Of a stretch of DNA of 64,000 bases, positions 3,147 to 46,287 are shown piece after piece; positions within the stretch are counted from its first letter, which is position 1, and every line of letters begins with the position of its first letter. The translations under genes and the position numbers were made by a program. A model generated the notes under the pieces. It saw only the letters and a program-made list of their open reading frames with translations, had not been told where the DNA came from and did no database searches. The DNA is from Podarcis erhardii (taxonomy: Eukaryota), in the NCBI GenBank assembly GCA_964252035.1, contig OZ176204.1, one strand, 5' to 3'.

Positions 3147-3907
3147 TGTCAGAGCTGCCTCTAGGTCCCAGCTCACAGAGGACCAACGCCCGGTTGATGT
3201 AATGTACAAGAGTCTTTATTGAAGTTTAGTTTCCATTTCAAACCCCAGAGCGTGCAGCCCTACGTCTTGGCCCTAGACCGGCAAAGTCCCCTCTGAGTCA
3301 CTACCCCTTCCGCACCAGTTTAAGATCCTAGCCCGGCTCCACCTCCTGCGCTGTTCCTTCCTCCTCTGGGTCCTTCTGCCCCCTGGGGTTTCCTCCCTCC
3401 TGGACTCTTCTGACGCTGACCCCCCTGAGTCTTGCCTTTCCTTCCGGCAGGCTTTAGGACCTGGCTCCCTATCCGGGCTACCTGCTGTGCCGCTCGCCTG
3501 TACATTTGAACTTGGCGCGCGCGCCCAGCTGGTGACTTTCCTCTTGACCGTTTCCCCGCTCTCCGATGGAGGCGTGGCCAATCCTGACTCATCTCCTCCC
3601 TCTGGTGGTGAGAAGACTGGTCCCGATGCCTGGGACTCCTCCCCCCCCACTACGCTCTGGTGGGGACGCTGGTCCTGATTTCCAACTGCTGCTCAGGGAG
3701 TCCCCGCTGGCCCCTTCCTTCTGGGGTTTCCCCCTTGGCACCCCCCTTGCCCTGGCCATCGGCGCTCCTCTCTGTGAATCTTCCGATTCGCTGGAGAGAC
3801 TCGTGGAATCTCTCTGACCACTGTCACTGCCTACACCCCCCTCGTACTCCTCCTCCTCACTCTCCATTTGCTCCTTCTCCTGTGTCTCTGCTCCTGAACC
3901 CCTGACA
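3147..3907 (-). mobile_element. Solo LTR, 761 bp, probably Gypsy-like and young
   Basis: TGTCAG...CTGACA termini; perfect 5-bp TSD cttgc at 3142-3146 and 3908-3912; AATAAA on the minus strand at 3221-3216; GC-rich with many intact CpGs. Confidence 0.9.
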
Positions 3908-3912
3908 CTTGC

Positions 3913-4270
3913 ATATATTGCAACCTCCTCAAGAACACTGTTATGCTATCTGATCTCCAAAAATATATATCCTAGAGCTAGAAAAGGTGCAAAATTGGCA
4001 AGCAAAATGATCAAGGGGTTGAAGAACCCTGTGAGAAAAGGCCAAAGCAATCTGGGGAATTTTTAAGTTTAGAAAAATGACAACTAAGGGGATCGTGATA
4101 GAGGTTGTGCATGGTGTGCAGAAAGTGAATAGACTGAGTTTTTTATCCCAATAAAATTTTAGGCGCCAGCTGCCCACTGATATCAGATTGTAAATAGGAC
4201 CAGAGCAAACAAAACAAAGTACTTCTTTACACAACTCATACTTAGCTTAAGGAATTTGCTACAAGAGGAT
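3913..4270 (+). mobile_element. CR1 LINE ORF2 fragment, right part
   Basis: tagagctagaaaaggtgcaaaa...aaaatgatcaagggg...tttagaaaaatgacaactaagggg..tgatagagg matches the CR1 LEKVQ.RA.KMI.G / RGD.IE region. Confidence 0.75.
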
Positions 4271-4276
4271 ACAAGA

Positions 4277-4475
4277 ACATAGCATAAGAAGAATCTTGTT
4301 GGTTCAGACCGAAGGTCTATTTAGTCTGTTCAGTAGGCAGTCAGATACCCTTGGGAAGCCCACAAAGAAGGACACAAGTGCAATGTTCCCCAGCAACTAG
4401 TATTCAGAAACCTACTTTCTCTGATACTGGAGGCAATATAGCTCTTGTGACTAATAGCTGTTGATGAACTTATTC
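4277..4475 (-). mobile_element. CR1-type 3' end, inverted and degraded
   Basis: aacatagcataagaagaatcttgttggttcagacc is the reverse complement of a CR1-type tail. Confidence 0.6.
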
Positions 4476-5929
4476 TGTGTGGTGCCCCCACGCCCAGATA
4501 GGTTTAATAGATGAATTAGACAAAGTTATAGCAGACAGGTCTATCCACCTTTCTTGGTCATGATGGTCTCCATGTTCAGAGGCAGTATATCTCTGAATAC
4601 AGGTTTCTGTGGCACAAATAAGGAGAAGCTGTTGCCTACATGCCATACTTGAGGACTGTCTGTGCTGGAGGAGAGATGGGGAAATATATGCAGGATAAAT
4701 GGCAAACAAGTATGTGTCCTGTACATAACCCTTCCCTGCTCACTGACCACTTTTCCGCTGTAACCCACCCATGTCTTCTCAGACCTGCTTTTGCCCGTAT
4801 CTTAGGAGACAAAAGGTCACATCCACACCATACAGTTAAAGCACATCTACCACTTTAACAGTCACGGCTTCCCCAAAGAGTCCTGGGGAAAATCGAAGGG
4901 AAGGAAAGGACATGCCATGCCTGTGATTTCTTTGTAGGGTACAATTGTTTTTAGCACAATTTGTTAAGAAAGAAACAGATAGCATACTGGGGGTCAATTT
5001 CAATGAAGAGTGAGCTAAAAAAAAACCTATCCACATTTTAAATGACTAATTTAAGCAAAAGAAATATTTCTATCTGATTCAAGCTGACAACCAGCTGAAC
5101 GGTGGCAAAGTAGGAATCTCTTCTTGAAATGTATGTGCCAGATGGGAGTGCTCATTGCTCTGAATCAGAGTCCTGGAGAATCACTGACGTCATCCGTGAA
5201 TCTGCCTCCTGCATTTATTTTCGAATCCCTGCTGGGGATGGGAGTCCACACAGAACCAAGGCAATATAACTTGCGCTTCATTAAACAAGTTAATTTCCTG
5301 TCTGGTCCTCCTGAGACATCAAAGTGTCTCATTTTAAAGCCCACTGATGCATGTGGTGAGGGCTCTGCAGAGACTAATCCTCAGAGTCTTCTAAATGTTC
5401 TTCCCTATACATGCCTCTGGAACTCACTGCCCCTTAAGTCCCTGGTGAGCAGTGGTGCCAGCCTCTTAATTTAATGGTGCACAGAACAATGCTGCTTACC
5501 GACAGTCAATCACCTCTCCACCAGAACGTAGAGCAATGTTTTATATAAGTAACAATGATGCTGATAACTCTAATGTACTATAGAATGAGGTGCTCAAAAT
5601 GGAATCTAAATACAAAAGTCGCAGGCAGCCTCCTTGAGGATCAAAAGGAGTCTCTGGATGCTGGTGAATCCTAATGGCATGAAAACAGTGCTAAACATCC
5701 TGTTTTAATATCCCACCTCTGGAGAGGTGTCTTACGGAGCAAGCGGAACCCCCTCGTTCTGGGATTGAGGAATGTGTGCTAGGTTGTGTGGAACCATCCC
5801 TTTGCCCTTCATTAATCCCAGTTAAGTCAGCCTCCCACTGCCACCCTGATGTGCTTCTCACCCAGTCAATGTAGCACTCGCCCTTGCACCTGCCAAACAC
5901 ACAGGTGAGAGTGAGAGTGGCCGATTTAA

Positions 5930-6200
5930 TTTCCAATTGGAAAGGTGACTTAATTCCTACAAAGCTTGACTGGCAGGTGAAGATGATAGAATACCTGGAA
6001 CTTGTGAAAATGACTGGGAGAATAAGAGGACACTCAAATCAGAAAGTGAGCAAAGAATGGGTAATATTTAAAGAATATTTAGAACAATATTGTGAAAATG
6101 CAAATCTCCTGACAGGTATAGTTTGAATCTTGAATATTAAAGAAAATTATAAACATTAAAAAAAATCTTGATATGTAATAGATATAACAGGAAGTGTGTA
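5930..6200 (+). mobile_element. L1-like LINE 3' fragment (ORF2 C-terminus and A-rich end)
   Basis: ORF 5884-6126 ends ISNWKGDLIPTKLDWQVKMIEYLELVKMTGRIR...KEWVIFKEYLE, typical of the reptile L1 ORF2 tail (WK...P...W ... EW..F..Y). Confidence 0.65.
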
Positions 6201-6346
6201 TGGCTTCAGAATATTTAGAAAGCACAATGAGGTGAATCAGAAGTCAAAAACGTGTGTGATGTTAGATGATGTGTAGTCAATTAATGTTTAGTTGTCATTG
6301 TGGTATTATTTTTGTCTGTTTGTGTAGTATGTTTTGCAATAAATAT

Positions 6347-6350
<4 letters not shown>

Positions 6351-6395
<45 letters not shown>
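6351..6395. repeat. (AG)n microsatellite
   Basis: Direct reading of the sequence. Confidence 0.98.
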
Positions 6396-6398
<3 letters not shown>

Positions 6399-6637
6399 TT
6401 TGGCTGGTGAGGGGCTGAGATGGCCTGGGATCTGTTGGATCCCAAGCTGATTTTACAGCTGTTGTATGATAGCACTGGGCCAATGGCTACAGATGCGGGA
6501 GGGGGCCCACCACTCCATAAATCTTTACAGGCAGTGGTGTAAAGTTTGGATTACAACTCATACAAATGAATGCAGATTCTGCAAATATGCAGGGCAAACA
6601 CCCAGAGCAGTATGGGATTGGAGCATATACAATTAAT

Positions 6638-6770
6638 CAAGGATGGAGAACCTGTGGTCCTTCTGATATTACTGGACTATAGTTCTCATCATCCCTGACC
6701 ATTGGCCATGCTGGCTTGGACCGGAGGAAATCAGGAATACAAATAGTTGTAAAATGGTAGGTCCTCCCAG
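6638..6770. mobile_element. Hairpin hAT-type MITE, degraded
   Basis: ggactatagttctcatcatccctgaccattggccatgctggc core shared with 14704-14841. Confidence 0.65.
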
Positions 6771-8480
6771 GTAGTGCGTGGGCAGAGCAGCAGTGAGCGA
6801 GAAGGGACATTGTTGTTTTTCTCCCTGCAATCTTCTGTAACTGAGTTCCTCTGGAGTCAAAAAATAAGCTTGAAGAAGCAGCTGGGGGAAAGGCTTCAAA
6901 GAAGGCTTCAGAAATTCCTTTCACTGATTTTCATCTTGAAATCAACAGTGTTCTTGAACTATGAAATGATGTGGCTTGGTGGCTGCCATTCTTCTAACTT
7001 GCATTTAGCACAAAGCCTTCTGGGAGGAAAACTTTGGGACTAGACTCAAATTGAAAAGGTCAAGGAAATATAGGCTAAGGTGAGAACACAGAAACATCTT
7101 TACATGATGTATTATGTGACCTGGGACAGAAATCCCAGGCTTGAGGATTGCACAGGTCCTTTTTTTCTGTGCCCTTTGGAACTTCCCCTGGTCTGCCCAC
7201 AGCTCTCCTCAGTCTTAAAGTACCCCTCCCCTTCTGGCCATAGCTTGAACTGAGCTGTGATTAAGAGTACAGAGCTCAGACAAAAGTATGTATCTTAAGG
7301 CAACACAATACACGGCCTATAATACTATGTCCTGATTCTGAATCAAGCTGAGGAGAATCTGTCTTGTCACCACTTGCAATCTCCTTAAGACTGACATGGT
7401 CAATTTTGTTTTCCTACTACTACTCTGTTAAAACTAGAAACAATAGCATCACAAATGTTCCTATCTTAGGACCAGTTTCTCTTTGCCGTTTTTCTTTATG
7501 TGAAATCTTCACTCCTGAAAGGCAGGTGTTACACTTTGCCTCATATTTGAGGTAGCTGCTGGTGGTATTTATAGAGGCATCATAATTGCTGGGGGGTGTT
7601 AATGGTCTAGATTTCTCTGTTGCCAAAATGTGTTAGGCTTTGTAAAACTATTTTTTAAAAAATATTATTGAAACCAGCCTTGAGCATATGGAGAGGTGGA
7701 ACATAGATGTTTTTATCTCCGTTCACAGCTTTTGGAAGAAGTTGCAAAATCTTTTTAATCAGAGATAACAGAGGGATGAAAAAGAAGAGAGCCAGCTCCA
7801 TAGGCAAATGAGCTCAGTCAAGCCACTATCTTTTCAAACTCTCATTATATTCAGGGAGGTTCATGGTCAACTGAACCCAGATCTCCTTGGTCCAAGGATG
7901 GGACATGAGAGATCTGTGATTGGGATCTCTGGTGGTTTACAAACAAGCCAAACAGCTCTGGTGGGGTGGGTGGAAATCAGATCAAGACCATGATATTGGG
8001 GAAAGAGCAGGGTGGGGTGAGTATAGGAGTTATCCCTTCCTCCCTGAGTCATTTCCCCAGTTGGAATACCATTCAACCTGCTATTTCTCCATGTAGTAAT
8101 AAATGCATCTGGTGGCATCTGTACCTTTTCCCCAAGCTTGGAGTGGGAGAACAGTTGCCATGAGAATGGCCAATCCCTCTGAATGAGCAGGGATGTGAAT
8201 GCCTCAGCCATTCATTTACACAGCAATCTGATGTTGCACATTGCATTAATATGATGTCATACATTACAATATTACACTGCAAATAGCATTGGTATATTTT
8301 AATTTGTTTTGTCTTTTATTGCTCAGAAGCCACTTTGGGGAGCCACTGACAGGAAACAACACATGTTTTTATTACTATTAATCATCCTGCCACAGCTGGT
8401 ATTTAAGGCTTTCTTAAAAACAGCAAGAAGCTCCTAATCACGGAGTCACATCAAGTTACATCTAACTTCAGAGTGTAGAC

Positions 8481-8590
8481 TAACCTGCCCCACGTTGGTG
8501 CCTTCCAGTTGTGCTGGACTACATCTCCCATTAGCTGGGGATAATGTTGTAGTCCAAAATATCTGAAGGGCACCAGCTTGTGGAAGGCTG
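8481..8590. mobile_element. Hairpin hAT-type MITE, degraded
   Basis: ggtgccttccag..tggactaca / tgtagtcca..tctgaagggcacc inverted arms. Confidence 0.7.
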
Positions 8591-8953
8591 ATCTGGACAC
8601 AACACATCACATTGGAATTGCCAGTATGTGACACATACAAATCTATTACAATCTATTACAAACCACAGAAAACATTCTTCAGATTAGCTTATGGTTGTAA
8701 TGAAACACCTGAAGGGAGATCCCCCCCCAAAATAATAATAATTGTTTTGGTATGATTAAACTGGCACTCAACTAAACCCAGAAATGGATTTCAGAGGGCT
8801 AGGGGAGAATAATGCTACCAAAATATTTCAGAGGAAGTGAAACAGTTTTAACATTCTTCCCAGTTTTCTGCCAGCTACCTAAATTGATCCTTGTCTTCAC
8901 TGTCTTGTATGTGGGGGTGCAAAAGCTGCACCCCTGAAAGTGGGTGTTTCATA

Positions 8954-9179
8954 CAGTGGTACCTTGGGTTAAGTACTTAATTCTTTCCAGAGGTCCATAC
9001 TTAACCTGAAACTGTTCTTAACCTGAAGCACCACTTTAGCTAATGGGGCCTCCTGCTGCTGCTGCGCCGCCGGAGCACGATTTCTGTTCTCATCCTGAAG
9101 CAAAGTTCTTAACCTGAAGCACTATTTCTGGGTTAGCAGAGTCTGTAACCTGAAGCGTATGTAATACGAGGTACCACTG
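8954..9179 (+). mobile_element. Tc1/mariner-type MITE, family A, 226 bp
   Basis: TIR cagtggtacc...ggtaccactg, flanked by TA on both sides, with reiterated taacctgaag motifs. Confidence 0.9.
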
Positions 9180-9199
9180 TATATATATTTTTCCAATCT

Positions 9200-9530
9200 T
9201 AAGCACGGCTTGCCACATTTCTGCATCTCTTTGTGAATTTTTTATTTAAAAATTATTAAAAGTCCTCACAAATATTTATCAGAATTTTAGTGTGAATTTT
9301 CCGCAACATAAACATTTTTGTCTGTTATTTCCCCCAACATGATGCATTTTTGTGTTTTCTTTTCACTTATATAAGCACTCTAATGCACACTTTCCCCTAA
9401 CACGCCCATTTTTTGTTGTTTGAGAACTGTGTTCCAAAATTCGGAAAAGTGCAGATGTTGGAAGGGCAGCTGCGTTTCACTTCATTAAAGTGCAAAGTGA
9501 AACAAATTTCTTTCTCATCCCTGTTTGATG
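9200..9530. mobile_element. Degraded AT-rich DNA-transposon-like repeat, same family as 1-222
   Basis: Shared motifs with 1-222; ends in tctcatccctg. Confidence 0.5.
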
Positions 9531-12088
9531 CTGGTGATGTAATCCATCTCCTACCAAGGACCCCTTGGAGCTGCTTTGGTGGTACCGTCTCCCTTTTTCT
9601 TGCATCTTTCTCTAGTTCATCAACATGCTTAGCCTTCCTTGCTATATTTGGCTTGGCTTTGCCTGCCATCCGCAGGCAGAGACTCCAATTTATTTATTTA
9701 TTTATCTGCTCCGTCCCCCCCCCAAATAAACCCCCAATACCTCTCCTCAAAATCAAAAGAGAGAAAGGACTGAAAAATGACAAATCATTTCAGAACAGGG
9801 TTTGAGTGGATGTGTGTGCTCAGCTCTTATTTTTACGCTTCCTGCTTTGGGTGAGTGTTCAGGAATTCACTTAGTGAGGTGCTGCTTATTCTTTCCAGTG
9901 GGTGATGTTGACAGTCCAGCATTGCCTTTGTTTACACAGCACATTTAATCCTGGGTTTTTAATTTTTTTTTTTTATCTCTCCACATCCGCTCAGAGAAGA
10001 TGATAATTTTCTGAAATTAAACACTTAGCTTGATTGCTGTTTTGTTAATTGCCACATTCACAAACCCCCCCGGTGCTCCTGCCTGTTTAACATGGATAAT
10101 GCTGCAAAGATGATCGGCATCAAATTGGTGTGCAGGTGGGCGGGCGGTAGTACGGAGGCCTCCTCATCATTGCTCGTTCAGATGGATTGCCCAGCATCAT
10201 TGCACAAAGGGAAAGAATTAATCTGAAGCGGAAATGTCTTTACAAAACCACACAGATGGAAGTTCAAAAGAGGAAACTTGAGAAAGAGATTTCTCACCCT
10301 GTTAGCACTGGGGTGCATGTGAAGAATCTTGCAAACTGGAAGCTGATCATATGTTCTTGGAAGCTCTGATAAATTACCTTACATTTCTATAAAGAACTTG
10401 GTTTTCATAAACGCAAGGGCATCTTATGTAGAATGAATCATGCTTGGATTAGTTTTCACCTGAATAAATATCAATTTCAACGATGATAGAAACACCAATT
10501 ATGCTTTTATTATTTACTTTGAAAGCTTATATCCCACTTTACCCTCACCAATGAACTCAAAGTGACTCACAATGCAAACCTCTTAAAAACACAATAATTG
10601 TTTAGTGGCTTCCCAGCTTTAACAGTCTGATTCTACACCTAAGATTTGGTGCATTCAAAGGCACAGAGTTCAGACTGCCTTGTAGTCCTCACTGAGAATC
10701 ACCCTTGACCTCAGCACAGCAAATGCCTTCAGCACAGCTCTACTAGTGTGTTTATCTTTGCTCCCAGAACAAGGTTGAGATCATGAAAATTTAAGAAGTC
10801 TGCTGGATCTCACCAAGTACACCTATCTAGTCTAGCATCACAGGGCCAGCCAGATCCCATGGAAAGCCTGAAATGGTGTGTGTGCCAAGCTGAACTTTTT
10901 CTATGATTTATTTCTGTAGTTCAGCAAAGTTGGCATAATGGATATAGCAAACTTTATTGACCCTCGTGCAAGTCTTTATCCTGAACATCTCCTGGAAGGC
11001 TTCCAGACCTTCTTAATATTTTATGTAAAGATCAGCACAGGCATCTGGTGTTACCAGCAAAATATAATTAATATCTCCTGTAAAAAAGAATGAGCTCCAC
11101 ATATTTAATAGTAAGATAAACTTAGAACTCAGGAAACAAACAAAGATTACCAGTTTAGACATTTCCCACTAGGATTATATTCTTTTGACTACCAAATGAG
11201 CAAAGTAAACAAAATGGGATAGAGATAGGAATGTAGCAGGAAAAAAAAATGAAACAAATGACTATACGGCCTAAGAAAGATCACTCATCTGATTAGCCCC
11301 CTCCTAATTCCACTGGGAACGACTGGCTCAGAATAGTGCTCAAACCCCAGATGAATAGTGTGTTTTGACTCCATTTTACTTTTACAAAGGTTACTGGCCA
11401 CTTTGAGAAATGTTAATCTTTCTGAATTTTCTTTTTTAAATAAAAAAAAAATTTGTAACAGCAGGTAGTACTGGTTCCTGGGTTTGCAGCTGCAGGACAA
11501 GGAGTCTCCAGAGACTGGTGAGGGGACCCCTACTGCAGCATGGGACACACTTGGTATCCGATGTTGCTGACACCTTCCTTAACAAATGAGGTATTTTTAT
11601 CACAGGGGTTTGGGCTAATATTGTGATATTTAACACGCACACTGGCACCTTGAGCTATTTATGGGGAAAGCGCCTTGCTTTCTCTTATTACGAACCTGTT
11701 TTGAAAGTTTCCCTATGTGAAATTAAACCTTCTCACATCCAGCAGGTGAAGTGATATCTTGTGACTATATACTGGTTGACTGGTCTTCAGGGGAATGCAC
11801 AGGTGTGTCTAGCTAAGGCACGATTCTTTTGTCAATTCCATTTCTACATTTTGTGCTTCAGAATGGCAATATGTGACAACGGTCAAAGCATGGTTAGGAG
11901 CCTTTTTCACAAGTGAGCAGCCAACTTGGCAATTCAATACATGGAGGGATAGTATTTTAAATTCTAGCTTTTGAAGTGGTCAACTTGGCCAATAAATTAA
12001 TGCCATCAAGCTATAAGGACAGATTTTCTTCACAATGAAAGACAAAGTATTATAAATTGCATCCATACATTTGCGTGGCAGCTGCACA

Positions 12089-12197
12089 GTGGCAGTGGGA
12101 GGCTCCATTAGCTAAAGTGGTGCTTCAGGTTAAGAACAGTTTCAGGTTAAGAACGGACCTCCAGAACCAATTAAGTTCTTAACCTGAGGTACCACTG
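12089..12197 (-). mobile_element. Tc1/mariner-type MITE family A, half copy, inverted
   Basis: ccattagctaaagtggtgcttcaggttaag...gaggtaccactg followed by TA; reverse complement of the first half of 8954-9179. Confidence 0.85.
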
Positions 12198-14375
12198 TAT
12201 AGCAAAATTTTGGAAGAAGTGGAAAATGACCTTCTTTCTTAACTTATGTCTGCTGGATATGAGAGAAAGCAGTCTTCAAAGCAAGCAGGCCTATAGCAAG
12301 AGCCAGCCAACCTAAAGCACACACCATGAGTCTAGACCTGCAATTACAACTTGCTCACACACGAAATTCAGTATGCTGTACGTATTTATATTTTGCAGCC
12401 TGAAACGCTCTGGGAATAGGGTCAGTTAGCAACATTTCCCACAGCAATAATCTTAGAGGCAGGCAAGTGGCCAAAACTGCGAGCCTTACAAAAGTTCTCA
12501 GGACCACGTAAAGAGGCACCCAAGCTCTGCACATTAACAAAAGGGAGCCTTAAAGATACTAGGAATTAAATAGGAACTCATTGGGGTAGAGGGTTATTTG
12601 GATGGCTAGATGGACAGATGGGGAGATAGCTGTTACGGAGAGATGAAAAGAAAAGTAGTGTGGAGATGGATGTATGGGTGAATGGGCAGACAGATGGTTA
12701 AGAAAAGGGTACTGATTGGTTCTTATGAACCTGAGAAAGGCATCCAAGTTTGTTTCTGTTAAGAAATGCTTAATTAGACTAATTAAAGAGAAGAGAATTG
12801 ACATAAATACTATTTTTTTGTGAACTTGGAGTATGCAAATTTCTCCATCATTTGTCATTACTTGGAGTCTGCTCCCCCCCCCCACTCTTTCATGCGTGAT
12901 TTTAATAAAGCCCCATGTAGATTCTGAATGCACACTCCCATTCAAAGTTGGTGTATGGAGATACAGCTGCCTATAATAACACACTTTCCCCGTTATTCTC
13001 TGCTTAGGCAGTAACTCTTGCAGTTAGAAATATATTGCATTTTTAGGTCAGCGGCGGCACAAAAAAGAGAGGCCAGCAAAACTAAATTGTTAAGCATCAA
13101 TGACTGAGTCAGTGCCAAATCTGCACAATCTATTCTGCCTGTGCATTCCCATTAACCTCCCTTTAAATGCCTCTAGTGCTTGGCACCCCATTTCAACCTG
13201 CTTAAACAAGTGCTGAATGCTAACACCTTGCATCTAACTGCCAAATATTTATTTTATGTTTGTGGTCTTTCAAATATTGTTCGCATCCATAATGCACTGA
13301 AAGCAAATGCGCTTCAGTTGGATAATTACAGAGCATGTCTGAATACAATGCAAATATATCAACTCTTAATAATCATGGCTTTCTGGCAGAAATAGGAAAG
13401 GAGAGATGAGTGGATACACAGATGGGAAATAGAGTGACTGACAGGCAGGACAAAAAAGGAGCATAGGAAACAACACCTAACAGAATAATAAAGCAAGAGA
13501 AATTTACAGGAGGAGGATGGGCTGAGTAGAGTTGAATGGAGCTCTGGGGATTCAAAGCTGAGACAATAGACCAAAGGAGTGTTTGACCTGCTCTTGCCGA
13601 GGCCACCTTGAGGCCCCTCGCTGTCCAAGGAGAGGCAGCCACAGATGGGCAGAAGAGCAGATGGGCAGGTGGGCACATGTCAAAATGGAGGGAGAGAGGA
13701 GCAGCAAGCAGACATAACAGACAAAAGAGTATAGATACAAGTAGTCGGTTGGATTGGACTTGATTAGAGATAGAAACGACATCCAGGCACAAACCTAACA
13801 TGACATCCTGACAGAGTTCTTATTCCCTGGAGATGTGACGCTAAAATATTTACGCCAGGTTTCTGTTGCAAACTCTCCCAGCGGGTGGAGTTAACAAAGA
13901 CTTTCCATTTTACGTGTTTCATACAAAGCAGAAATTACCATTCCCTTTCTGTAACGAAACCAAACAGATTGTCATCTATTGTTGCCTTCTACTGTCAATT
14001 CTTCCCTTCATTAAGCTTTAGGCCAGGGTCACCACCTGGTTGCTGTCCCTTCCCCACCCTTCTTCTTAACCTCACATAGAGAACACAGGCACACGTGCTC
14101 ACACCCTTCACAGATCCACCACCATCTGGCAACCTACTCCACTTCCCCTATTTGTGCCCCCCTTTCCTTCCAATACAGGTCACATTCAGCAATATTTTTC
14201 TCTAGGATTTGTTCCTGGTAACTAAACACGACTCTGCAAGGGGAAAAAAGAGATAAACTCCAAAGACAATTAAGCGCCTTTCTATGTATCGTTGCTGTTG
14301 TTGGTTAGTGCAATGTTTCCCAAATTTTCCAACTGTGGTCTCCTTCTGACCTTGTTTCCTTCCTGTGGCCCCCCC

Positions 14376-14500
14376 CCAGGCATAGCCAAGGGGGGCAGTG
14401 GGTCAGATGCCCCCCAATAAGTAACAGATCAATACATATCTGAGGCTCTGTCCCCCCAGCAAAAGCCTGCCCCCGTAACAAAAATCCTGGCTACGCCTAT
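14376..14500. mobile_element. Small hAT-type MITE, nested
   Basis: caggcatagccaagg ... cctggctacgcctatg inverted termini. Confidence 0.7.
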
Positions 14501-14655
14501 GTCGTCGTCCCCGTCCTACCAGTAGAAAGGTAGCTATTTAAATGTATTCTTTTCTTTGTAAATAGAACATGTTTTGTTTATCATTTTTATAATTTATACA
14601 GAATACAATTCATAAAATGATTGGAACATAATGAAATATTGTTGAAGCAGAAAAA

Positions 14656-14960
14656 CATAGAATCATGGAGCTGGAAGGGACCCCATGGGTCATCTGTCTA
14701 GTGCAGTGTTTCTCAACCTGTGGGTCCCCAGATGTTGTTGGACTACAACTCCCATCATTCCTAGCCAGCATGACTAGTGGTCAGGGATGATGGGAGTTGT
14801 AGTCCAACAACATCTGGAGACCCACAGGTTGAGAACCGCTGGTCTAGTGCAACCCCCTGCAATGTAGGAAAATCAGCTAAAGCATCCATGACAGATGGCC
14901 ATCCAACCTCTTACAAACCTCCAAGGAAGGAGAGTCCAGAACCTCCCAAGGCAGATCCAT
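14656..14960 (-). mobile_element. CR1 LINE 3' end, inverted, interrupted by a MITE
   Basis: catagaatcatggagctggaagggacc is the reverse complement of the CR1 tail; it continues caaccccctgcaatg...gatggccatccaacc after the MITE. Confidence 0.75.
14704..14841. mobile_element. Hairpin hAT-type MITE, 138 bp, intact
   Basis: Near-perfect palindrome cagtgtttctcaacctgtgggtc...gacccacaggttgagaaccgctg; perfect 8-bp TSD gtctagtg at 14696-14703 and 14842-14849. Confidence 0.92.
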
Positions 14961-15699
14961 CTGCCACTTCCCTCTGTGGCCCCCTAGCCTCGTGCTGTGC
15001 CCCCCTCCATTTATGTGATTTTCACCTGCAGCCCCTTTGGAATATCCTGCCCCCCCAATGGGGCCATATGGCCCCCTGGTTGCAAAACACTGGTTTAGTG
15101 CACCATCTGCACAGTCGTTACTCGGCTAAAAAGTGGATCCAGATTACAACTTCCCTCAAGGTAGTGCTCCCACTGTCGGAATCATGACACCACCACTCAA
15201 ATTGCAGTATCATGCCATTTGGGAAGATGGGATTCTTCCAACAGTTGGTACTTCCTTTGTGGTTGTGAACACAGAAAGTAATGTGACTGTGAGAGTGACT
15301 TGGACAGCACGGGAGGCCCTGATGGTGGTGCCACCAGTGCTTCTGCCACCTCCCGCCATGCGCCAACCATCGTTAGTAAGCACACCAGATGGTAGCAATG
15401 GAGTTGGGGAGTACTGAATGGCACTATGCTCTCAAACAGTAACAGCTATGCCATTGTTTTATCCAGTTACAAGAAACCCTGGCTGCAGGTATGACCCAGA
15501 ACCATTTAAAAAGGGTGGAGGTCAGAAGGGCAAGTGGCAAAAGCAACATATATTTATGGAACCCGGCTGCAAAACTTGAACAATGTCAAATCAATGATGG
15601 CAGAGGAAATGCAGTATCTGAAAGCAATCTAGATTTTCTTCTCTGCGCATATCAAGAAAACCAGACATGAGGTCTCTGAGCTGCTGTTGTGGCACTTAC

Positions 15700-23848: not shown

Positions 23849-23852
<4 letters not shown>

Positions 23853-23922
<70 letters not shown>
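23853..23922. repeat. Compound (CT)n(CA)n microsatellite
   Basis: Direct reading of the sequence. Confidence 0.98.
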
Positions 23923-27107: not shown

Positions 27108-27447
27108 CTGGAATAAACAAGGGCAGAGAAAGAAACAAGAAGGTGTCAAATTCTCATCAAAATACATGTATCAGACAGGAACTGAATTAATCTAATTTTG
27201 TTGCAGTTCCCAAGACATTTTTCCAAAATATGGCATGAACATCATCAATAGAAACAAAGAATTTAACATCCTTGTACAGAAGCGCCTGGTTTGACTGACA
27301 AACGTCCTGAGAACTTTTGCTATTGGGTGGGGTGTAAATATATATCTATTAAACAAAAGCCAAGGTCTAGAAAGCCAGAGAACATCTAAGGATGAATGAT
27401 TATTTTTTGCAGTTTGTGGCAATGTAAGATGGCTGTGCAAGTGAGAA

Positions 27448-27689
27448 CAGTGGTACCTCAGGTTACATACGCTTCAGGTTACATACGCTTCAGGTTACAG
27501 ACTCGGCTAACCCAGGAACAGTGCTTCAGGTTAAGAACTTTGCTTCAGGATGAGAACAGAAATCGGGGTCCGGTGGCGCGGCAGCAGCAAGAGGCCCCAT
27601 TAGCTAAAGTGGTACCTCAGGTTAAGAACAGTTTCAGGTTAAATATGGACCTCCGGAACGAATTAAGTACTTAACCTGAGGTACCACTG
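27448..27689 (-). mobile_element. Tc1/mariner-type MITE family A, full length, inverted relative to 8954
   Basis: TIRs cagtggtacctc / gaggtaccactg with TA on the right; closely matches the reverse complement of 8954-9179. Confidence 0.9.
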
Positions 27690-27895
27690 TACAGCCCTGC
27701 TGCAATTCACTAGTGGTCTGAATTGGCTCATGGCAGCACAAGATGGCAAACTACTCCTGCCTGCTCGGGATTTAGGGCACTGCAGGCAGCTCCCCCACAC
27801 AGAAGAGAGATGGATAAAAAGCCACATATAAGTCTGCTGTCTACTGTGGAGTGACTCTGATTCTCTTTAATGTTAAAGGGCCTCTTTCTGTAATA

Positions 27896-30375: not shown

Positions 30376-30940
30376 TCTCGTGGACTGGTTGGACACAGAT
30401 GATTGGTGGGAGGAACCAAGGGATGAAGGCTCAGAGCCTGGTGTGTGGAGGTGGAACAACGATGAATGATCACATGGAGAAGAGGGAGAAGTCTGGGATG
30501 AGGAGATGTTGGAAGGTGAAGAGTTAACAGGGCTTAGTGAGCTGGGAGAGTCTGTGGCAGACAGAAGTCCAGAATCAAGAGTCAGAAGGGGCCAAGAAGC
30601 AGAGATGAATCAGGCTGGTGAAGAGTCACAGGTATCTTCCTCTCTTGCTGTGTCAAGCTCCCCTCCCTGCTTGTCTCCCAGAACCAGAAGAGGCATGAAA
30701 GAGTGAAGGAGCAATTGGTGATGCACAGAATCAGCCTCTGCTTGGGGAAACACCTGGTGAGGAGGGGACTTTGGGCAGTTGTGGGAAGCCAGGGACCTTC
30801 AGTCTTAGCAGCTGCTTCATGGGGGCAAGACCTATTGGAGATGAATTGATGTGTTCATTACACCTGACACTCCTGTGCATAACATGTTTTAATAAAGAGT
30901 CATCTCCATAGTGTGATTTACTGCTGGTTTGCTCCTGACA
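30376..30940 (+). mobile_element. Solo LTR, 565 bp, older and antisense to EPHB1
   Basis: 5-bp TSD gttgc at 30371-30375 and 30941-30945; 3' end cctgaca; 5' end tctcgtgg interpreted as a decayed TGTC start; AATAAA at 30891-30896. Confidence 0.8.
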
Positions 30941-32394: not shown

Positions 32395-32540
32395 GGGTCA
32401 GGGAAGCCAACAAGGTGGCCTCCTGATGTTGATTGACTACAATTCCATCATCCTTAGCCAGTGACCATGCTGAATAGGGCTGATGGGCATTGGAGTCCAA
32501 CAACACTCGAGGGCAGCACAACATTGACTACCCTTAGGCT
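32395..32540. mobile_element. Hairpin hAT-type MITE, degraded
   Basis: gactacaattccatcatccttagcc...gctgatgggcattggagtccaacaac core. Confidence 0.65.
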
Positions 32541-35500: not shown

Positions 35501-36054
35501 CAGGGATAAACAGTTTTCAAAGCTGAGCAGAAGGTTAAGGGGGAAAGCCATATAGAATGAAGAGTTATGATGACTGCTTGCATTCTGGTGTGGATCATAT
35601 TCTTTTAAGGGCGGTGGGTTGGTCACACACCAAATCTATCTCTCGGCTATAGCTGTTTGTACTAAACAATGGGGGCATTACATATCAAGTGATCCAACTT
35701 TTTTTACCTCGTGTCATCCAATTTTCTTAATTTGTACACTTGTTGAATGATCAAAACCAAGCTTAAATCTAAAATTTTAATTGTTTATCTCATCTCGTTT
35801 GTGAATGATGAGGGTTTGAAATTTCAAAAAGTTGACCATTTTGGCCTTGCCAGACTACACAAAAACATTAAAAGCTCAGTTCAAAATTGAGATACATCAA
35901 AACTAAAAACATGTTCCAAAGCTGAGTGATAGCTTGCTATTGCATGATAGATTTAAACTTAGCTTTGAGCACTCAGCAAGTGTACAAAATATTAAGAAAA
36001 CTGAATGACATGAGGTAAAAAAGTTGTATCACTTGATATGGAACAACCCAATGG

Positions 36055-36057
<3 letters not shown>

Positions 36058-36085
<28 letters not shown>
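36058..36085. repeat. (GAT)n microsatellite
   Basis: Direct reading of the sequence. Confidence 0.95.
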
Positions 36086-39000: not shown

Positions 39001-39379
39001 AAAATGCAATAAAAAAATACCTTTCTCAAATAGCACCTGAAGCGGAATTTAGTAACAATTCCAGCCATTGCCTTTGGGGACTGAATTAAAGTTATCTGGC
39101 TGGTTCATTGTAGTCCCATACGATATGACTCTTGTCTGATGCATCCTCCTCTTTCCACCCCCCATCTCATTCTACACAAGGGTAAAAACACAGTTTTTGG
39201 AACAGGTCCTCAAATGCAAGAATGTAACCCAAGCCTGACAGTATAGAATTCAGTTGTGGCTGAACATTCTCCCACCATTATGTCAATTAGAAGTTATTTT
39301 GCTGAAGACACCACTCATTCCACTTGTGTCAAAGGGACTTGTGCAGAAGGCCATTCTGAGTGGATTGTGGCCTAAAGTA

Positions 39380-39615
39380 CAGTGGTACCTCGGGTTAAGT
39401 ACTTAATTCGTTCCGGAGGTCCGTTCTTAACCTGAAACTGTTCTTAACCTGAAGCACCACTTTAGCTAATGGGGCCTCCTGCTGCCACCATGCCGCCGGA
39501 GCACGATTTCTGTTCTCAAGCAAAGTTCTTAACCCGAGGTACTATTTCTAGGTTAGCAGAGTCTGTAACCTGAAGCATATGTAACCTGAAGCATATGTAA
39601 CCCGAGGTACTACTG
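39380..39615 (+). mobile_element. Tc1/mariner-type MITE family A, full length
   Basis: TA-cagtggtacctcggg ... cccgaggtactactg-TA; colinear with 8954-9179. Confidence 0.9.
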
Positions 39616-41389
39616 TAGTATTAGAGAGGCACTTACACTCCACTCACAATGCAAGGCTGTTTTGAGCAAAATGCAACCTCATTTCCAGAATTCCAGGAAG
39701 TGTCTTAGGCATTCTGTTTGTGCCATTCCTTCAGACCTGGGAATGTATAAATGGCTTTCTTTATAAGTAGTCTTTCATATAATAATCTCAGAGAAGAGAA
39801 TTATGCAGGAAACACAGCAAAATCATAAACCTGACTAGTGACAAACAGCTCGCTAGAAGAGAGGAAAAGTTCCTACTTCATAGTGAGTTCCAGTTCCTGC
39901 CAACAGGTAGACATAATACATGGATCCTGGCCTTCACTTAGCCCAATCTGTCTCCCCCACACCACCACCTTGTTCACATTCAGTGTCTCTTACAATGTAG
40001 TGGTGACTTTTGAAGTGAAGGAGCTCAATTCATGGCAGCCCCCATATAGCCACAAGACTGTTTCTAACTAGCCCGATGGCCGAACAACACTTTTCCCCAT
40101 TGTTTGTGGCAGTCTTTTGCATCATTCTGCAGGAATAAACATAGCTGAACTCAGTGATGCTTATTTTTGACTGCATGGGTTCAACTTAGAAGACAATAAT
40201 AAGCTTTAACAAAACATCTTCAGCCAACCGAACTGGAACCTTTAGCTTTTAATTGGAATTGTAAACTTTGCAAAGGAATGTCACCAATTAAACTAGTAGC
40301 ATGAAGAAAGAACCTCACCAAAACAAATATTTGTTGTTTGCATCATTTGATTATTTTCACCATTCTCTGACTTCCTCTATGCTGATTTGTCACAAACAAA
40401 CTTGGACGCCATATACAGTGTGTGTGTGTGTGTATAACCTTATTCACATTTTAGAGCAAAGTCTGTCACTTACGCTGGCTGTCCATCAAATGACATCATT
40501 GCTCCTGTCCTGAAAAAAATGTCCCAGAGCTGTGTGTGTCTCTGCCCACATCTTCACCATGTACCTCCTCTGAACACAATAGCTCCTTCCTTAGTCTGCT
40601 CTGGAATCTGATGCTGCAATCCTGTTCTCTTTGGGGAGGCAGTCCCCTCTACTCAAATGACTTCCACACTTGGTGGAACTCAAACTACACATCCAGGGTG
40701 GTTCCCTTTCTACACTTCTGCTGCTTCCATCTTTGCTGATGAACCTATTCCCACAGCTTCCAACCACTCTTTTCCCTCATCCATAGTGTTGGGATCATGA
40801 TAACCTGAAGGGGTGCTGAATGTCAGCCAGACCCCCAAATCTAAGGGCAATTTTCGTCTCTAAGAAAAGTAAGAACCCCAAAGGAATAGGAAATCTCTCC
40901 TTTATTATATGTGAATGGCCAGGTCTTCCAGATAGTACATTTTACTTCTTCCCATGCATGTGTACTTACCATGCCTCTCAGTGCTCTTTTCTGACACTCC
41001 CTATGTCTAGAACAGCCTTCTCATTATCTTATATGCCAATTTATTTCCCTGTCCTTCAAAACTCAATACCTAAGCCTTTCCAGCACCATCATTGGGAGCA
41101 CCTGTTTTATTCTATATCAGGGGGTAGCAAACCTTTTTCAGACAGAGGGCTGCCTTCCAGAGGGCCACATACTAGTGGACCTGAGGCTCTCTACTCCTGT
41201 TCTTTATGCACTCAGCCAAACCCATCACCTTTTCTACTCCATTCTCAAGCTCCGCCCTTCACTTTCCCCCTTTCTTCCCTGTCTTATGAGATACACCATT
41301 TCCCTTCTCTATTCAAGGTGTGCAGTGCAGTGTGTATAATCTAGTTTTATCCTGTATATCTATATATAAAGCTATCTACAAATGGCCTT

Positions 41390-41540
41390 TTGACCTATTG
41401 CATAGGTCACCTCACCTTACGCTGTGAGGTACCAAAACTAGGGCCTTCTCAAGAGTGGCACCTCAGCTGTGAAACTTCTCTCCCTTTAACATGTTTGTTT
41501 GATGCCAAACCAAGGCACCCAAACCATTTTATTTTGCTGA
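41390..41540 (+). mobile_element. L2 3' fragment, old
   Basis: agggccttctcaagagtggcacctcagctgtgaaac resembles the L2 RAFS..AP.LWN region. Confidence 0.5.
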
Positions 41541-42886
41541 ACTACCAATGATTTACAGAGCAATCCTAATTTTACTCTGCATTAGTTTGGGGCGGAAGTG
41601 CCCTTCTGCTGGCAGAGAGGATCACACCTGGTGGGTGGCACCTCTGTCTTGGTGGCCCCTGGTACACCAGCAGAAAGCTCAGTGGGCAGAGGACTACTGG
41701 TAGCAGCATTTCTGCTGTCAGTAGGCTCTGTCCACCCCTCCAAAAGGCCCCATGATCAAGCCCTTCAGTTGTGCCAGCCTGGAGCTTAACTCTTCCCTAT
41801 TGAAAGCAATGAGAGAATTAAACAAAACCCAAAACCTAGTGACAGTCATCAGGGCTTTGGAAATGATAGGCCATCCTTAACCACCACCCACACACTTACA
41901 ATTGTTCTGCCAATGGGTCCTGGGATTTTACTGCTGCTCTTAACTGTTATTATGTTCTGTGGTGTGCTATTTTATCAGTTATATTTTAAAGGGTTGTTGT
42001 AAAGTGCCTTGAGAATCTTGCACTGAAAGTTGGGGTGTAATGGTTTAATAAATGTGTGCATAAATACATCTCTTCCATAGGTAATTATGTATGTATGTAT
42101 TTATATGCATACATAGGCTTGCCAGAGCATGCGTATTGCCTTACTCTTACTTTCCAAGCCCAAAATAAATGTTTACATTACTGTCTTTTACCCAACCTCT
42201 GAAATGTGTCTCTGTGTAGTCTGGAAATGGAATGTGCTAAAACAGCCAAAGAAAGTCCCAATGTCCGAAAAGGTTAAGCAGCCGTCTAAACAGTGTCAAG
42301 CAAAATGGCTTGAGCATGAAGGACAGCTGCGGGCTGACATGGTATGTCACATAATCACTTATGCTATGGAAACTCTGCAGTGTTACCAATAGCACACGCA
42401 CAATGGCCAGAAACATCACACAACTGCTGAGTGAAAACATGAGAAAAGATCTTCCCTGGGTACAATTACCACATATTCTTTGGCAAAGAGAATGCTCCTT
42501 TTGAGAGACAAAACATATAATGCAAATGAACCTCTGATGCTTAACTTGTAGAAAATATTCTCACCACAAACAAAGGGCACAGATTTTCTATTATCACTTG
42601 CGAGGGGCGGGGGATCCTTTAATCCCTAAACAAACTGAGCTGTAACCAGAAAACCAAATCAACCTTGCTCACATCTAACAATCCATTTGCAATTTAAGGG
42701 GAGCATTTTGACAAACCACTTTACCGCAAAGAGACTTTTAGATATGTGCAACTGGTTTCTATAAATAGTGTTTAAGGAGTGGAGGGAGCAGGATGTAAAT
42801 AAATTTGCTTGCTTAAATTAGCAAATTAGTTTCTATAGTGCAAAAGAGCATCTGGGCCAGACTGCGGGCCTGTGGAGATACCATAA

Positions 42887-43235
42887 GGCCTGGCTCAGAC
42901 ATAATGCGAAGCCATGACTAATGCTAAACCACTCCTCCTCCATGCATAAGAAAAGAATGAAAGCACAGGCATTTAGTTTTTAATAAACTGCACTTTCCTG
43001 TCACATCCAAACTCAAGAAGCTATGGTTAGTCCAAACAAACCAGGACACAACAGTGGTTTCATATCTTAGTTTGTTAACTAATCACAATTTCCTAAATTC
43101 AGACCTAGTGGAGATCTTAGTCCCCCTTCCTTTGAGTGTGAAGGAGGGGGGGAGGAGTGTGTCTGAGTCCATGGCTTGTCATGGCTAGTTCTCACAATGT
43201 TAAACCATATTTCAGTGTTGTGTCTGAATGAGGCC
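42887..43235. mobile_element. PIF/Harbinger-type non-autonomous element, 349 bp
   Basis: TAA on both flanks (42884-42886 and 43236-43238); imperfect TIR ggcct..tcagaca / tgtctga..aggcc. Confidence 0.65.
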
Positions 43236-43826
43236 TAAGAGTGACAGCTGTCCCGGTCATTTGCATAACTTCATCTGGATGCCTTTGTCCACTTTTCAGG
43301 ATAATCAGTATACTCAGTAAAGCAAATTATCAATCAATTTCGTGGATTGACATCCATGTCATGAGTTCAGCTTACACCGTCTTAGCCGGCGGCATTTGAA
43401 AGCTTTCATGGAAATGCTATCGTTGAAGACATAAATCTCTGCATTGGTTTGCTGTACTGATGTGCATCCAGCCTATGGCATTTCCAACCCTTGAAAGCTC
43501 TTGCCAGCTGAGGATCAAATGGGACATGATAGCAGCAACTGTATTTGGTTATTTATCTTCTCCATTAAACAGGGGGTTATTGGATTATTATTTTTAACAT
43601 CAAACAGGGCACATGGGTGAGAATAACTGAACCCTACCATGCAGTACCACTTCCTCATTCTCCATTTTTCATTTCTGGTTCTCACAGCTCAACTCACTTG
43701 CGGTATCAAGCTTTGTTGGGGAAAAAGTTCCCAGGGAGTCATGACTGTCAGGAGCCGAGGCAGAGGAGAGTGTGCAGCTGGGGAGATGTGCCTGGAATGT
43801 ATCCCAAAAATCAGACAGATGGACCT

Positions 43827-44370
43827 CAAGGGCGTCATATGGAATTTTGCTCACACCTCACCTCAGGCCTGCCAGCTTGGCCCTGGGACAGTGGGTGCCC
43901 GAGGGTTGTGTTCATGTGCGCATCTGACGTCAGCATGCCCACCACAGCCAAGGTGCATTTTTGAGAGGGGGCACAGCTAGGTGCTCCCACACAGGCTCCA
44001 TCATTGGAGCCTGGCTCCAGCACACAGCCAGAGCTCCGCTCTTGGGTCAAGTCTGACTCGGAGGTGGAGTGGAGGAGAGGCAGTGGCAGCAGTGTTGCCG
44101 CCCCTCTCCTGCACTGGGCTGCTGATGTACACTCAGCCTCAGCTCCACTCCTGGGTCAAGTCTGACCTGGGAGGTAAAGGAAAGTCGTGGCAGCATTGCC
44201 ACTCCTTTCCTCAGCTGGGCAGTGTGTCTGGCCGGGCTGGGCTTGGCAGGCTCCGTTGGGGGTGCGCTTGGCAATAGCATACACTCCACTGCTGTGCGTG
44301 CTGATGTCAGGCGCACACGTCCCCACGGTGTCTATGCGCAAAAAATATATGGGTGTCATGCCCCTTCATG
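43827..44370. mobile_element. GC-rich MITE-like element with internal inverted and tandem repeats; ends uncertain
   Basis: Inverted pair at 43916-43938 and 44296-44316; repeated units with a period of about 109 bp starting at 44034 and 44143. Confidence 0.5.
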
Positions 44371-44435
44371 GGGAATGTTGTGGGGGCTGGAGCAGTGCCT
44401 TTGCCTGACATATCCTTTTATACCAAATTGAGAAT

Positions 44436-44660
44436 AAGAGTTTGGATTTGATATCCTGCTTTATCACTACCCTAAGGAGTCTCAAAGCGGCTCACGATTT
44501 CCTTTCCCTTCCTCCCCCACAACAAACACTCTGTGAGGTGAGTGAGGCTGTTTAATGTATCACAGTATTGTTTAATGTATCACAGTATTTTAATATTCTT
44601 TTGGAAGCCGCCCAGAGTGGCTGGGGAAACCCAGCCAGATGGGTGGGGTATAAATAATAA

Positions 44661-44703
<43 letters not shown>

Positions 44704-44835
44704 GGCTGAGAGACTTCAGAGAAGTGTGACTAGTCCAAGGTCACCCAGCAGCTGCATGTGGAAGAGTGGGGAAGCGAACCCAGTTCACCAGATTACGAGT
44801 CCACTGCTCTTAACCACTACACCACACTGGCTCTC
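44436..44835 (-). mobile_element. tRNA-derived SINE (Squam3-like), interrupted by an L2 tail at 44551-44702
   Basis: Reverse complement of the SINE at 58733-58951; head gagagccagtgtggtgtagtggttaagagc at the 44835 end. Confidence 0.85.
44551..44703 (+). mobile_element. 5'-truncated L2 3' end with a (TTA)n tail, inserted in a SINE
   Basis: gccgcccagagtggctggggaaacccagccagatggg matches 49702-49745; TSD aggctg at 44545-44550 and 44703-44708. Confidence 0.85.
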
Positions 44836-45699
44836 AGAGAGACAGATGACTGTCTGTATACAAAAGCTACTACTATTGCACTAAGAATGCACTATTCCTT
44901 TTGACAGATCTCTTCCCCCAGCTTTGGGTGTTTCCTTCCACTTCTGAAACACAGCCCATGCCTGACTAGAGAGGGTTTATGCAAATTCTCTACTGTGCTG
45001 TGTGCTCTTCCCCCTTCTCTTCCATCAGCCTCAATGATAGAAAATTGTGTCCTGTTTTCAACTAATGGCAATTTCTTAAACATCTTACCATTTCTGCCCT
45101 TGAAAACTACCTCTTGCATGAATTAGTGTCAGAATCTATCTGTGTTTCAAATCCTGTGGAGTAATGTGATTTTGTTTGCAAGTCAGAAGAACACAAAGAT
45201 GCATTAGACACCCTGACAACATTTCAGAAAGGAGTTATCAGGGAGTCTTTTAATTCTCTCAATGTATTCAAAATTTTCCGAATGCATTCCACTTGTCAGT
45301 AAGACTTAACAATAAGCACTGGGAAACAGTGGAATTTCCCCTCCTTGCAGGAACTACTATGGAAATAAATCAGTTTAAATGGAGTGAGCAGCCCTTTGAC
45401 TTGCCATCCTGACTGCTCCCAATCAGTTGCCCCAAGCCACAGAAAGAGGGAAGGGGCTAGAAAGCAACCACCATATGTGTCCTCCTTGCCAAGAGGCTTC
45501 CTGTGAAGAGAAGCTCAGGCAAACCCTTCTGTCTCCCTGGTCTCTCCCACCTTTGAACTTTTTTGGGCAGCTGACTTTGCCTGCCCCATTCTCACTCCAC
45601 CTTAATATTTCCAAGTAAGAACTCACCTGCAAATAGGTCCTTCCTTATGGGTAGACGTTTCCTCATGGAGCAGGCTATAATTTGAGCGTTAATGCTCAA

Positions 45700-46287
45700 A
45701 TCTGCACTGTGCATAAACACAGCAAGGATCCAAGGCACAACAGGTGATATGCATGGCTAAGTGAGCTACGACACTGATCCGTTATAAAAGAATAGAGTGG
45801 GCACAGCTTGAGCACAATAAGAGGGGTGTTCCTTTGGACTGGGCAAGCAGATGGGGCCTTCTTATAGTGGCCTAGACCTGAGCTGTCTGTTTGCACTGAT
45901 GCTGGTGTCTCAATGACTTAGGTGACAGAGAAGAAGTGTGTTGACTCATAATCATACTGGGTGGTGGAAATCTCCTGGAAGGCTGAACTAGGCATGGGCT
46001 CTGGTAGCACTGGAGGGGGAGCTGGGGCTGGAGGTGAGACTGGTAGAGGAGCTGATGGTGAAGTGAGAGGGATATGATATGAGAGGGAACAGCGCAGAGC
46101 GCCAGGGTGACTACTGGGACCCTCTCTGGGATCCACATCCTCATCTGTAACTTCCCCTGGGTGGCTCCTATGTCTCTTGTGGCCCAAGCGTTGCCTGTCC
46201 TAATTCCCAGAGTCATCAATGGGCAACTCTTCCAACTTCTCCCAACAACTTTTGAAAAGCCATTGGTTCCTCACCCTTACCATAAAT
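45700..46287 (-). mobile_element. Candidate degraded LTR; 3' boundary not resolved
   Basis: Minus strand starts atttatgg (possibly a decayed TGTTATGG), runs through an acidic then Pro/Ser-rich frame, and has a TATAAG motif near 45867-45862. No clean TSD or AATAAA was found. Confidence 0.35.

Follow-up and report, generated by a model that had tools for sequence, protein, structure and literature searches.

The 64,000-nt window of the Podarcis erhardii genome analysed here (contig OZ176204.1 of assembly GCA_964252035.1) contains three long terminal repeat (LTR) elements, elements 1–3, in which an earlier note on this DNA had described a long open reading frame starting at LTR nucleotide 2. This frame is probably (probability about 0.85) the C-terminal tail of the integrase (Pol) of lizard Ty3/Gypsy chromoviruses, and likely serves in nuclear import and chromatin tethering; for elements 2 and 3 we infer the same origin. 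In the family of element 1 (family 1), the pol frame passes across the junction into the 3′ LTR, a protein sequence with this fusion is found in another lizard, and the frame is under frame-specific purifying selection.

Element 1 and its full-length parents

Element 1 and its parts are located as follows.
3147..3907, minus strand: element 1, a solo LTR from a young family of Ty3/Gypsy chromoviruses, probably of the Tf1/sushi type, with TG..CA ends, the 5-bp target site duplication (TSD) GCAAG on both sides and parents with gag and pol
3643..3906, minus strand: first part of the U3-coded Pol tail (acidic, then Ser/Pro; from LTR nucleotide 2), 99% identical over 88 amino acids to a natural pol-fused copy (tblastn)
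3641..3648, minus strand: G run with the one-base indel that splits the frame of the window copy (copy comparison)
3273..3647, minus strand: second part of the Pol tail including the stop codon (LTR nucleotide 633), in frame 3 in the window copy, 95% identical over 124 amino acids to a natural pol-fused copy
3315..3377, minus strand: conserved basic and hydrophobic C-terminal motif RR..RR.E..RR.S....L.W (sequence comparison)
3284..3294, minus strand: 11-mer complementary to the primer-binding site of the parent; predicted self-primer and predicted start of R (complementarity; PMC6317226)
3215..3220, minus strand: AATAAA polyadenylation signal

Element 1 is indeed a TSD-defined solo LTR, and its long frame does start at nucleotide 2. 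In the window copy the frame does not run unbroken through the basic segment; it closes after 105 codons, with RRTQRRKEQRRR in frame 3, because of the one-base indel in the G run. T accounts for 13% of the bases of element 1. In dinucleotide shuffles, the first stop and the longest frame gave P values of 0.043 and 0.22, respectively, for this copy, 0.20 and 0.27 for element 2, and 0.28 and 0.034 for element 3. The window copies alone are thus hardly beyond shuffles (P 0.03–0.28), and family data were needed to judge the observation.

The genome search with element 1 gave 3618 first-look candidates, the best 40 of which were scored (98–100% identity) and 30 fetched. The nucleotide-2 frame is open for 210 codons in 26 of these 30 best matches; the window copy and three others are 1–2 bases longer and have a split frame. 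For a typical family-1 copy, P was 0.002 when the whole LTR was shuffled and 0.010 when only the first 640 nt were shuffled, so that at the family level the frame is longer than in composition-matched shuffles, a comparison proposed in the earlier note.

The same note had suggested looking for full-length parents, and these were found for family 1 as two LTR pairs 5.8 kb apart. They carry gag and the protease, reverse transcriptase, RNase H, integrase and SH3 domains (PR-RT-RH-IN-SH3), followed by a chromodomain-like stretch and then the acidic tail, and have no env. With TG..CA LTRs and TSD, gag, the PR-RT-RH-IN order and a polypurine tract (PPT) before the 3′ LTR, family 1 is a young Ty3/Gypsy LTR retrotransposon, and probably a chromovirus of the Tf1/sushi type. 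The chromodomain-like stretch of its Pol aligns with that of three sister groups (A–C); the Pol of family 1 has no Pfam Chromo match and group A relatives have one. The closest profile matches, where named, are vertebrate Gypsy proteins.

Continuation of pol into the 3′ LTR

In family 1, pol crosses the PPT and enters the 3′ LTR in the nucleotide-2 register, with the junction G-G-[MV]-D|V-R in this family and its sister groups. The frame always begins at LTR nucleotide 2 because the T of the terminal TG is the third base of the Asp codon. Six of 30 family-1 3′ ends can be read without interruption from SH3 through to the stop at LTR nucleotide 632. Of the 27 that have both landmarks, 10 keep the register, a count biased by the query, which is itself out of register.

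The junction was also examined in other Gypsy families, represented by 30 loci fetched from the 150 scored matches of an SH3_Tf2-1 family search. It was located in 26 of these 3′ ends, 23 of which are of the type GGA|TGTCAG and three of the type GAGTAC|TG. The former read G-x-V-D|V-R. Of these 23, 16 have pol in the nucleotide-2 register, 11 can be followed from SH3 on into the LTR without meeting a stop, and 19 keep LTR frame 2 open for at least 70 codons. The GAGTAC|TG loci serve as a control clade: their pol terminates ahead of the LTR, and their frame 2 has only 10 codons before it closes. Sister groups A–C carry the same pol continuation over 70–110 codons, with Val instead of Met at the junction and no early Met.

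The Podarcis muralis UniRef protein P0004, from a cluster of 23 that includes Podarcis lilfordi proteins, consists of Pol fused to the whole family-1 tail. It shares 62% identity with family 1 over the region and 60–88% per 25 amino acids in the LTR part, with a one-codon indel and the same end. P0015 is likewise Pol fused to the whole family-1 tail, and the P. muralis proteins P0001–P0003 are Pol fused to the group A tail; the P. muralis UniRef entries are gene predictions, not evidence of translation. Pfam gave no match to the LTR-coded peptide, and an ESM Atlas search with the tail of a relative returned no usable match.

As to genomic distribution, group A, another young Gypsy family, has many copies with the same long open pol frame on large contigs, and a sampled one enters the LTR. 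Among the internal-bearing family-1 junctions (on 20 large contigs), 23 of 39 lie within 0.5 Mb of a contig end, at both ends, where 0.5 were expected; only three of the 40 best LTR matches lie so close. Retention of full-length copies near chromosome ends seems more likely than targeting there, because solo LTRs are interstitial. A large proportion of the best SH3 matches, along with several family-1 copies that contain internal sequence, lies on one 30-Mb contig (C19), as expected of a repeat-rich, low-recombination chromosome.

Selection on the frame

Ratios of non-synonymous to synonymous substitution (dN/dS) were obtained from Nei–Gojobori counts on natural copies, and the pairs compared are not independent. 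Between a family-1 copy and three subfamily LTRs (90, 90 and 67% identity), frame 2 gave 0.33, 0.29 and 0.30, respectively (P = 8e-5, 6e-5 and 4e-11), with values of 0.63–1.65 in frames 1 and 3. The ratio in frame 2 of family 1 (0.29–0.33) is thus below 1 between subfamilies, a test that had been proposed for the frame. Both halves of the tail are constrained (0.32–0.43 and 0.21–0.27, respectively). The four indels relative to the 67% copy measure 15, 12, 3 and 18 nt, and that copy is open for 208 codons; in one of the two 90% copies the stop comes three codons early. Four further subfamily loci were left out of these calculations because they have no recognisable 5′ end.

In eight pairs from the sister groups, dN/dS was 0.21–0.45 overall and 0.06–0.22 in the last 45 codons, where the other frames gave 0.75–4.5. 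The first half of the tail evolves fast between groups A and B (0.52–0.88).

The LTR part that follows the stop corresponds to window positions 3147–3272 in element 1. Subfamily differences in this part fall on the third position of frame 2 in 6 of 10, 5 of 9 and 21 of 42 cases. Group B, unlike family 1, has no third-position excess after its stop.

Elements 2 and 3

The other two elements belong to old families and show LTR features only.
30376..30940, plus strand: element 2, a solo LTR of an old family with 71–76% identity to its best matches and the TSD GTTGC (genome search, TSD)
30377..30706, plus strand: decayed nucleotide-2 frame (Trp-rich acidic start, SPRTRR), with stops at 30467 and 30704 that are absent from most copies (copy comparison)
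30762..30773, plus strand: 12-mer in common with the predicted self-primer of element 1, near the stop shared by the family (sequence comparison)
45689..46287, minus strand: element 3, a degraded, 3′-truncated LTR-like remnant of a third old family, with relatives that are Ser/Pro-rich and then basic (SPR..RRSSRLL type) in one frame; the 5′ boundary is plausible, not proven

The TSD and the position of LSPRTRR in frame 2 agree with what had been reported for element 2. Its 5′ TG has decayed, and the frame is not uninterrupted, having stops at codons 31 and 110. The family search returned 3608 candidates, and stops were counted in 29 copies with two other natural copies as references. Frame 2 has no stop present in more than 30% of the 29 copies before nucleotides 416–422, and frames 1 and 3 have 5–8 and 4–5 such stops, respectively; judged from these copies, the frame of the element-2 family was once open for about 140 codons. 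It ends beside the 12-mer shared with element 1, and most copies carry an ATG at nucleotide 5. Of the 78 distinct indels among the copies, 19 are multiples of three, which is no excess and agrees with long neutral decay. Of the PPT/primer-site pattern searches for a parent of element 2, one returned diverged subfamilies of family 1 instead.

For element 3, the same register had been suggested at a fitted boundary. Three relatives have a TG-like start 369–399 nt upstream of a shared anchor, so that the boundary fitted in the window (about 398) lies within their range; frame 2 stops at codon 29, however, and the basic segment (LSPKSLRH) is in frame 3. Element 3 has no TSD. In several of its 17 weak relatives, the Ser/Pro part and the basic part share a frame, which closes with the RRSSRLL-type motif. 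One of the three relatives with a TG-like start is in the nucleotide-2 register with a similar acidic segment, and one has an early ATG like that of element 2.

As the earlier note stated, the three LTRs cannot be aligned, apart from the 12-mer at the frame end of elements 1 and 2 and one 17-nt purine match. The order of acidic, Ser/Pro and basic segments that it described recurs in all three families, and the description as Trp-rich fits element 2 well. Over the last 50 residues, family 1, group A and group B are more alike than composition shuffles (P 0.002–0.037). The C-terminal parts of relatives of elements 2 and 3 also resemble one another (P 0.002–0.03), and are like family 1 or group A only in some pairs.

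Anatomy of the tail and proposed mechanism

In family 1, 10–12 nt of the primer site complement LTR nucleotides 613–623, about 148 nt from the LTR 3′ end, in both parents and seven subfamily loci, and the primer site is not of the tRNA type. Family 1 is thus predicted from complementarity to use self-priming, an arrangement described for the Tf1/sushi group (PMC6317226). The transcript would then start near LTR nucleotide 613, so that about 204 of the 210 codons would lie in U3. The tail would be translated only from the 3′ LTR of the full-length RNA, as the end of Gag-Pol. Given this U3 position, solo LTRs would not express the tail from their own promoter and would simply keep it as an orphan.

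The last 45 residues, basic and then hydrophobic, are the most conserved part of the tail; they may be a signal for nuclear localisation or for binding to nucleosomes. Just upstream of the LTR lie linkers that are acidic, rich in Ser/Thr and closed by FxGF, two in groups A–C and one in family 1, and each linker is preceded by a conserved Phe or Trp-x-x-x-Phe/Leu. The Gly-Phe pairs of FxGF are invariant in five aligned copies and conserved across families and species. Two strict FxGF motifs per tail exceed shuffles (P ≤ 0.001 in four of four such tails), and a single one does so weakly (0.02–0.06). The tandem motifs were located in four loci.
L086:1930–2136, L102:1927–2148, L092:1927–2130 and L095:1927–2130: acidic FxGF motifs in tandem, within the internal portion of the integrase tail, that resemble TND-interacting motifs (TIMs)

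The upstream motifs are candidate binders of a TND protein such as LEDGF or HRP2, and the tail may stand in for the chromodomain that has degenerated in family 1. Integration in Ty1 and Ty5 is steered by short segments of integrase, and the tethering of PFV (prototype foamy virus) Gag and MLV (murine leukaemia virus) p12 to nucleosomes depends on arginine anchors (PMC11054761). On such parallels, the chances that the tail has a targeting or import role in general are about even. Binding of LEDGF or HRP2 by the FxGF motifs in particular would be a tentative and rather doubtful proposal; the host genome contains two LEDGF-family loci, with the TND domain split over exons. Equally speculative is a wider scenario, in which lizard Gypsy chromoviruses would have swapped chromodomain targeting for a long disordered integrase tail, half coded in U3, that combines tandem FxGF motifs mimicking TIMs in LEDGF/HRP2 binding with a nucleosome-binding basic helix at its end, the module being spread by thousands of solo LTRs.

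Relation to known systems

In plant CRM group A chromoviruses, the pol frame enters the 3′ LTR and encodes the CR motif there (Neumann et al. 2011, PMC3059260), and an extension of the reading frame into the LTR occurs in several Bingo families of the Reina clade in beet (Weber et al. 2013, PMC3605345). The lizard elements resemble CRM group A in being chromoviruses with a 5-bp TSD and in having a pol that runs into the 3′ LTR and encodes there the integrase C-terminus, a proposed targeting domain in CRM. CRM elements, in contrast, form a plant clade primed by tRNA-Met, with TGATG..CATCA ends and a CR motif that replaces the chromodomain, and they target centromeres. Because the lizard elements have TGTCA..TGACA ends and a self-complementary primer site, they do not belong to CRM, and the likeness is one of layout; moreover, they keep a (degenerate) chromodomain upstream of the PPT, and their LTR-coded part comprises 70–210 disordered residues. 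With the vertebrate Tf1/sushi elements (V-clade) such as Sushi-ichi, they share the domain order, the SH3 and chromodomain-like end, the TGTCA..TGACA ends and a non-tRNA primer site that complements the LTR (PMC6317226, PMC3601003). The lizard tail is nevertheless far longer, acidic rather than AT-hook-like, and has FxGF motifs and another C-terminal motif.

A profile of six tails was searched against 1.84 billion representatives, and the best 150 matches were taken. The long FxGF tail occurs in five of these 150, all of the lizard type, and Rhineura and Vipera proteins have acidic, Ser/Pro and basic tails without FxGF. The motif G-G-x-[STDNA]|V follows the chromodomain in 32 of the 150; 14 of these end 13–26 residues further on in SPx[FY], and the three checked are from fish. 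Short read-through, with the junction inferred from protein alone, looks common in vertebrate elements of the Tf1/sushi group and expanded in squamates.

The partners of LEDGF/HRP2 share a motif outline (TIM, or integrase-binding-domain-binding motif, IBM) in which FxGF follows an acidic Ser/Thr linker of 8–16 residues in a disordered region, and lentiviral integrases bind the same TND (PMC9987994). Motifs of this type also require a short helix that docks in the first pocket. The lizard motifs have a similar outline in sequence, with a hydrophobic residue, 8–16 acidic Ser/Thr-rich residues and FxGF (PMC9987994, PMC7835958), and they lie upstream of the LTR, not inside it. Searches of PDB sequences with the FxGF region and the chromodomain region returned nothing relevant and no TIM complex.

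The sag gene of mouse mammary tumour virus and lentiviral nef are separate genes with their own mRNA and with coding sequence in U3. Like them, the lizard tail is coded in U3 and readable only from the 3′ LTR copy in the RNA; unlike them, it is continuous with pol and belongs to a Gypsy retrotransposon without env. A separate gene of the sag/nef type with its own start is not supported, because family 1 and groups A–C have the frame joined to pol in the same register, with Val at the junction in groups A–C. The proposal of a squamate LTR lineage with a disordered U3 peptide therefore stands as to its coding nature, its acidic-to-basic order and purifying selection, and is not supported as to a stand-alone accessory gene.

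Entry of pol into the 3′ LTR is already known from plant chromoviruses, and the fused lizard proteins sit unremarked in UniRef. What appears to be new is the length of the tail (up to 210 codons), the conservation of its basic C-terminal motif and, upstream, the presence of acidic FxGF motifs similar to those known to bind LEDGF. The literature searched gave no account of such a tail in squamates or of a retrotransposon with FxGF motifs; Repbase reports and subscription papers (e.g. Butler et al. 2001) were outside this search, and vertebrate elements whose pol enters the LTR may be described there.

Counter-evidence and alternative explanations

Several results weigh against reading the frame as a Pol tail. 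In an unbiased pattern search, only 15 of 40 family-1 junctions in the assembly keep the pol register; the other 25 are 1, 2 or 5 bases shorter, and nearly all of this shortening is distributed among the three G runs at the PPT, none of which is spared. In short-read contigs labelled with the same species as best match, one-base losses at the junction G runs made up 1.6 and 4.3% of the summed depth, a poor measure, and none were listed at a 5% threshold. These figures hint that most short G runs are homopolymer errors of the assembly, and some may be real slippage. No evidence of translation was obtained, the contigs over the tail in three runs, guessed to be RNA, being from another organism and mute on translation. 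One 90% subfamily copy of family 1 has a 16-nt frame-breaking deletion, so that the expected indels in multiples of three hold against the 67% copy, and not in this copy or among element-2 copies. The negative control is unclean, as the 42 triplets after the family-1 stop gave an unexplained dN/dS of 0.20–0.37 (P 0.013–0.05). Little third-position excess was seen inside the frame in four of five close group-B pairs, as expected where post-insertion decay dominates, and there is no codon-position signal among the old element-2 copies (P 0.27–0.32). No parent of element 2 was found with PPT/primer-site junction patterns, by tblastn of those loci with gag/pol proteins or by protein search with a natural copy, and none of element 3 among its 17 weak relatives. 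The C-terminus of element 2 compared with family 1 or group A gave mixed results (P 0.005–0.84).

The loss of register at so many junctions could mean that the tail is translated but mostly a dispensable linker, which slippage in the PPT G runs freely switches off, with selection only on a short nuclear localisation signal or on DNA (promoter, self-primer). Its length range (about 70 to 210 codons), the fast first half between groups A and B and the low dN/dS after the family-1 stop also fit this explanation. It is unlikely in view of the constraint on both family-1 halves, the subfamily indels that keep the frame and the few one-base losses in the short-read contigs. A separate, accessory-like small protein would instead suit three observations: the frame is open even where pol reaches the 3′ LTR out of register, family 1 has an ATG in frame at −5 that is kept in P. 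muralis and P0015, and an ATG stands at nucleotide 5 in most element-2 copies and one element-3 relative. It would be made (perhaps in addition) from the ATG of a subgenomic or spliced RNA, or be cut from Pol by the protease of the element. Such a protein is quite improbable: groups A–C have Val at this position and no early Met, several families and species have the tail fused to pol in frame, and transcription is predicted to begin only where the frame ends, so that the LTR promoter would not transcribe it. A further explanation, that LTR strands poor in T and rich in purines yield open frames incidentally, is suggested by the 13% T of element 1 and by the window copies of elements 1–3, which alone hardly exceed shuffles. 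This explanation is largely refuted for family 1 and groups A–B, and very improbable overall, given the family-level frame length (P 0.002–0.01), frame-specific dN/dS, frame-keeping indels, shared stops confined to the other frames in the element-2 family and a control clade with a closed frame.

Implications and other repeats in the window

A Pol tail would explain the recurrent open reading frames in solo LTRs of squamate genomes. U3 in this lizard chromovirus clade would then have two uses, as promoter and as protein-coding sequence, with a measurable constraint on the amino acids. The tail would also point to the probable site of nuclear-import and targeting signals in an unstudied vertebrate Gypsy clade. 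If FxGF binds LEDGF/HRP2, a retrotransposon would have converged on the lentiviral tether; if it does not, the tail would be a vertebrate parallel of the plant CRM layout with unusual length.

Other dispersed short repeats of two or more families, with 87–93% identity, are located in the window at 8952–9164, 12081–12203, 27447–27695 and 39377–39616, and at 44431–44841, 49683–49791 and 58725–58948.

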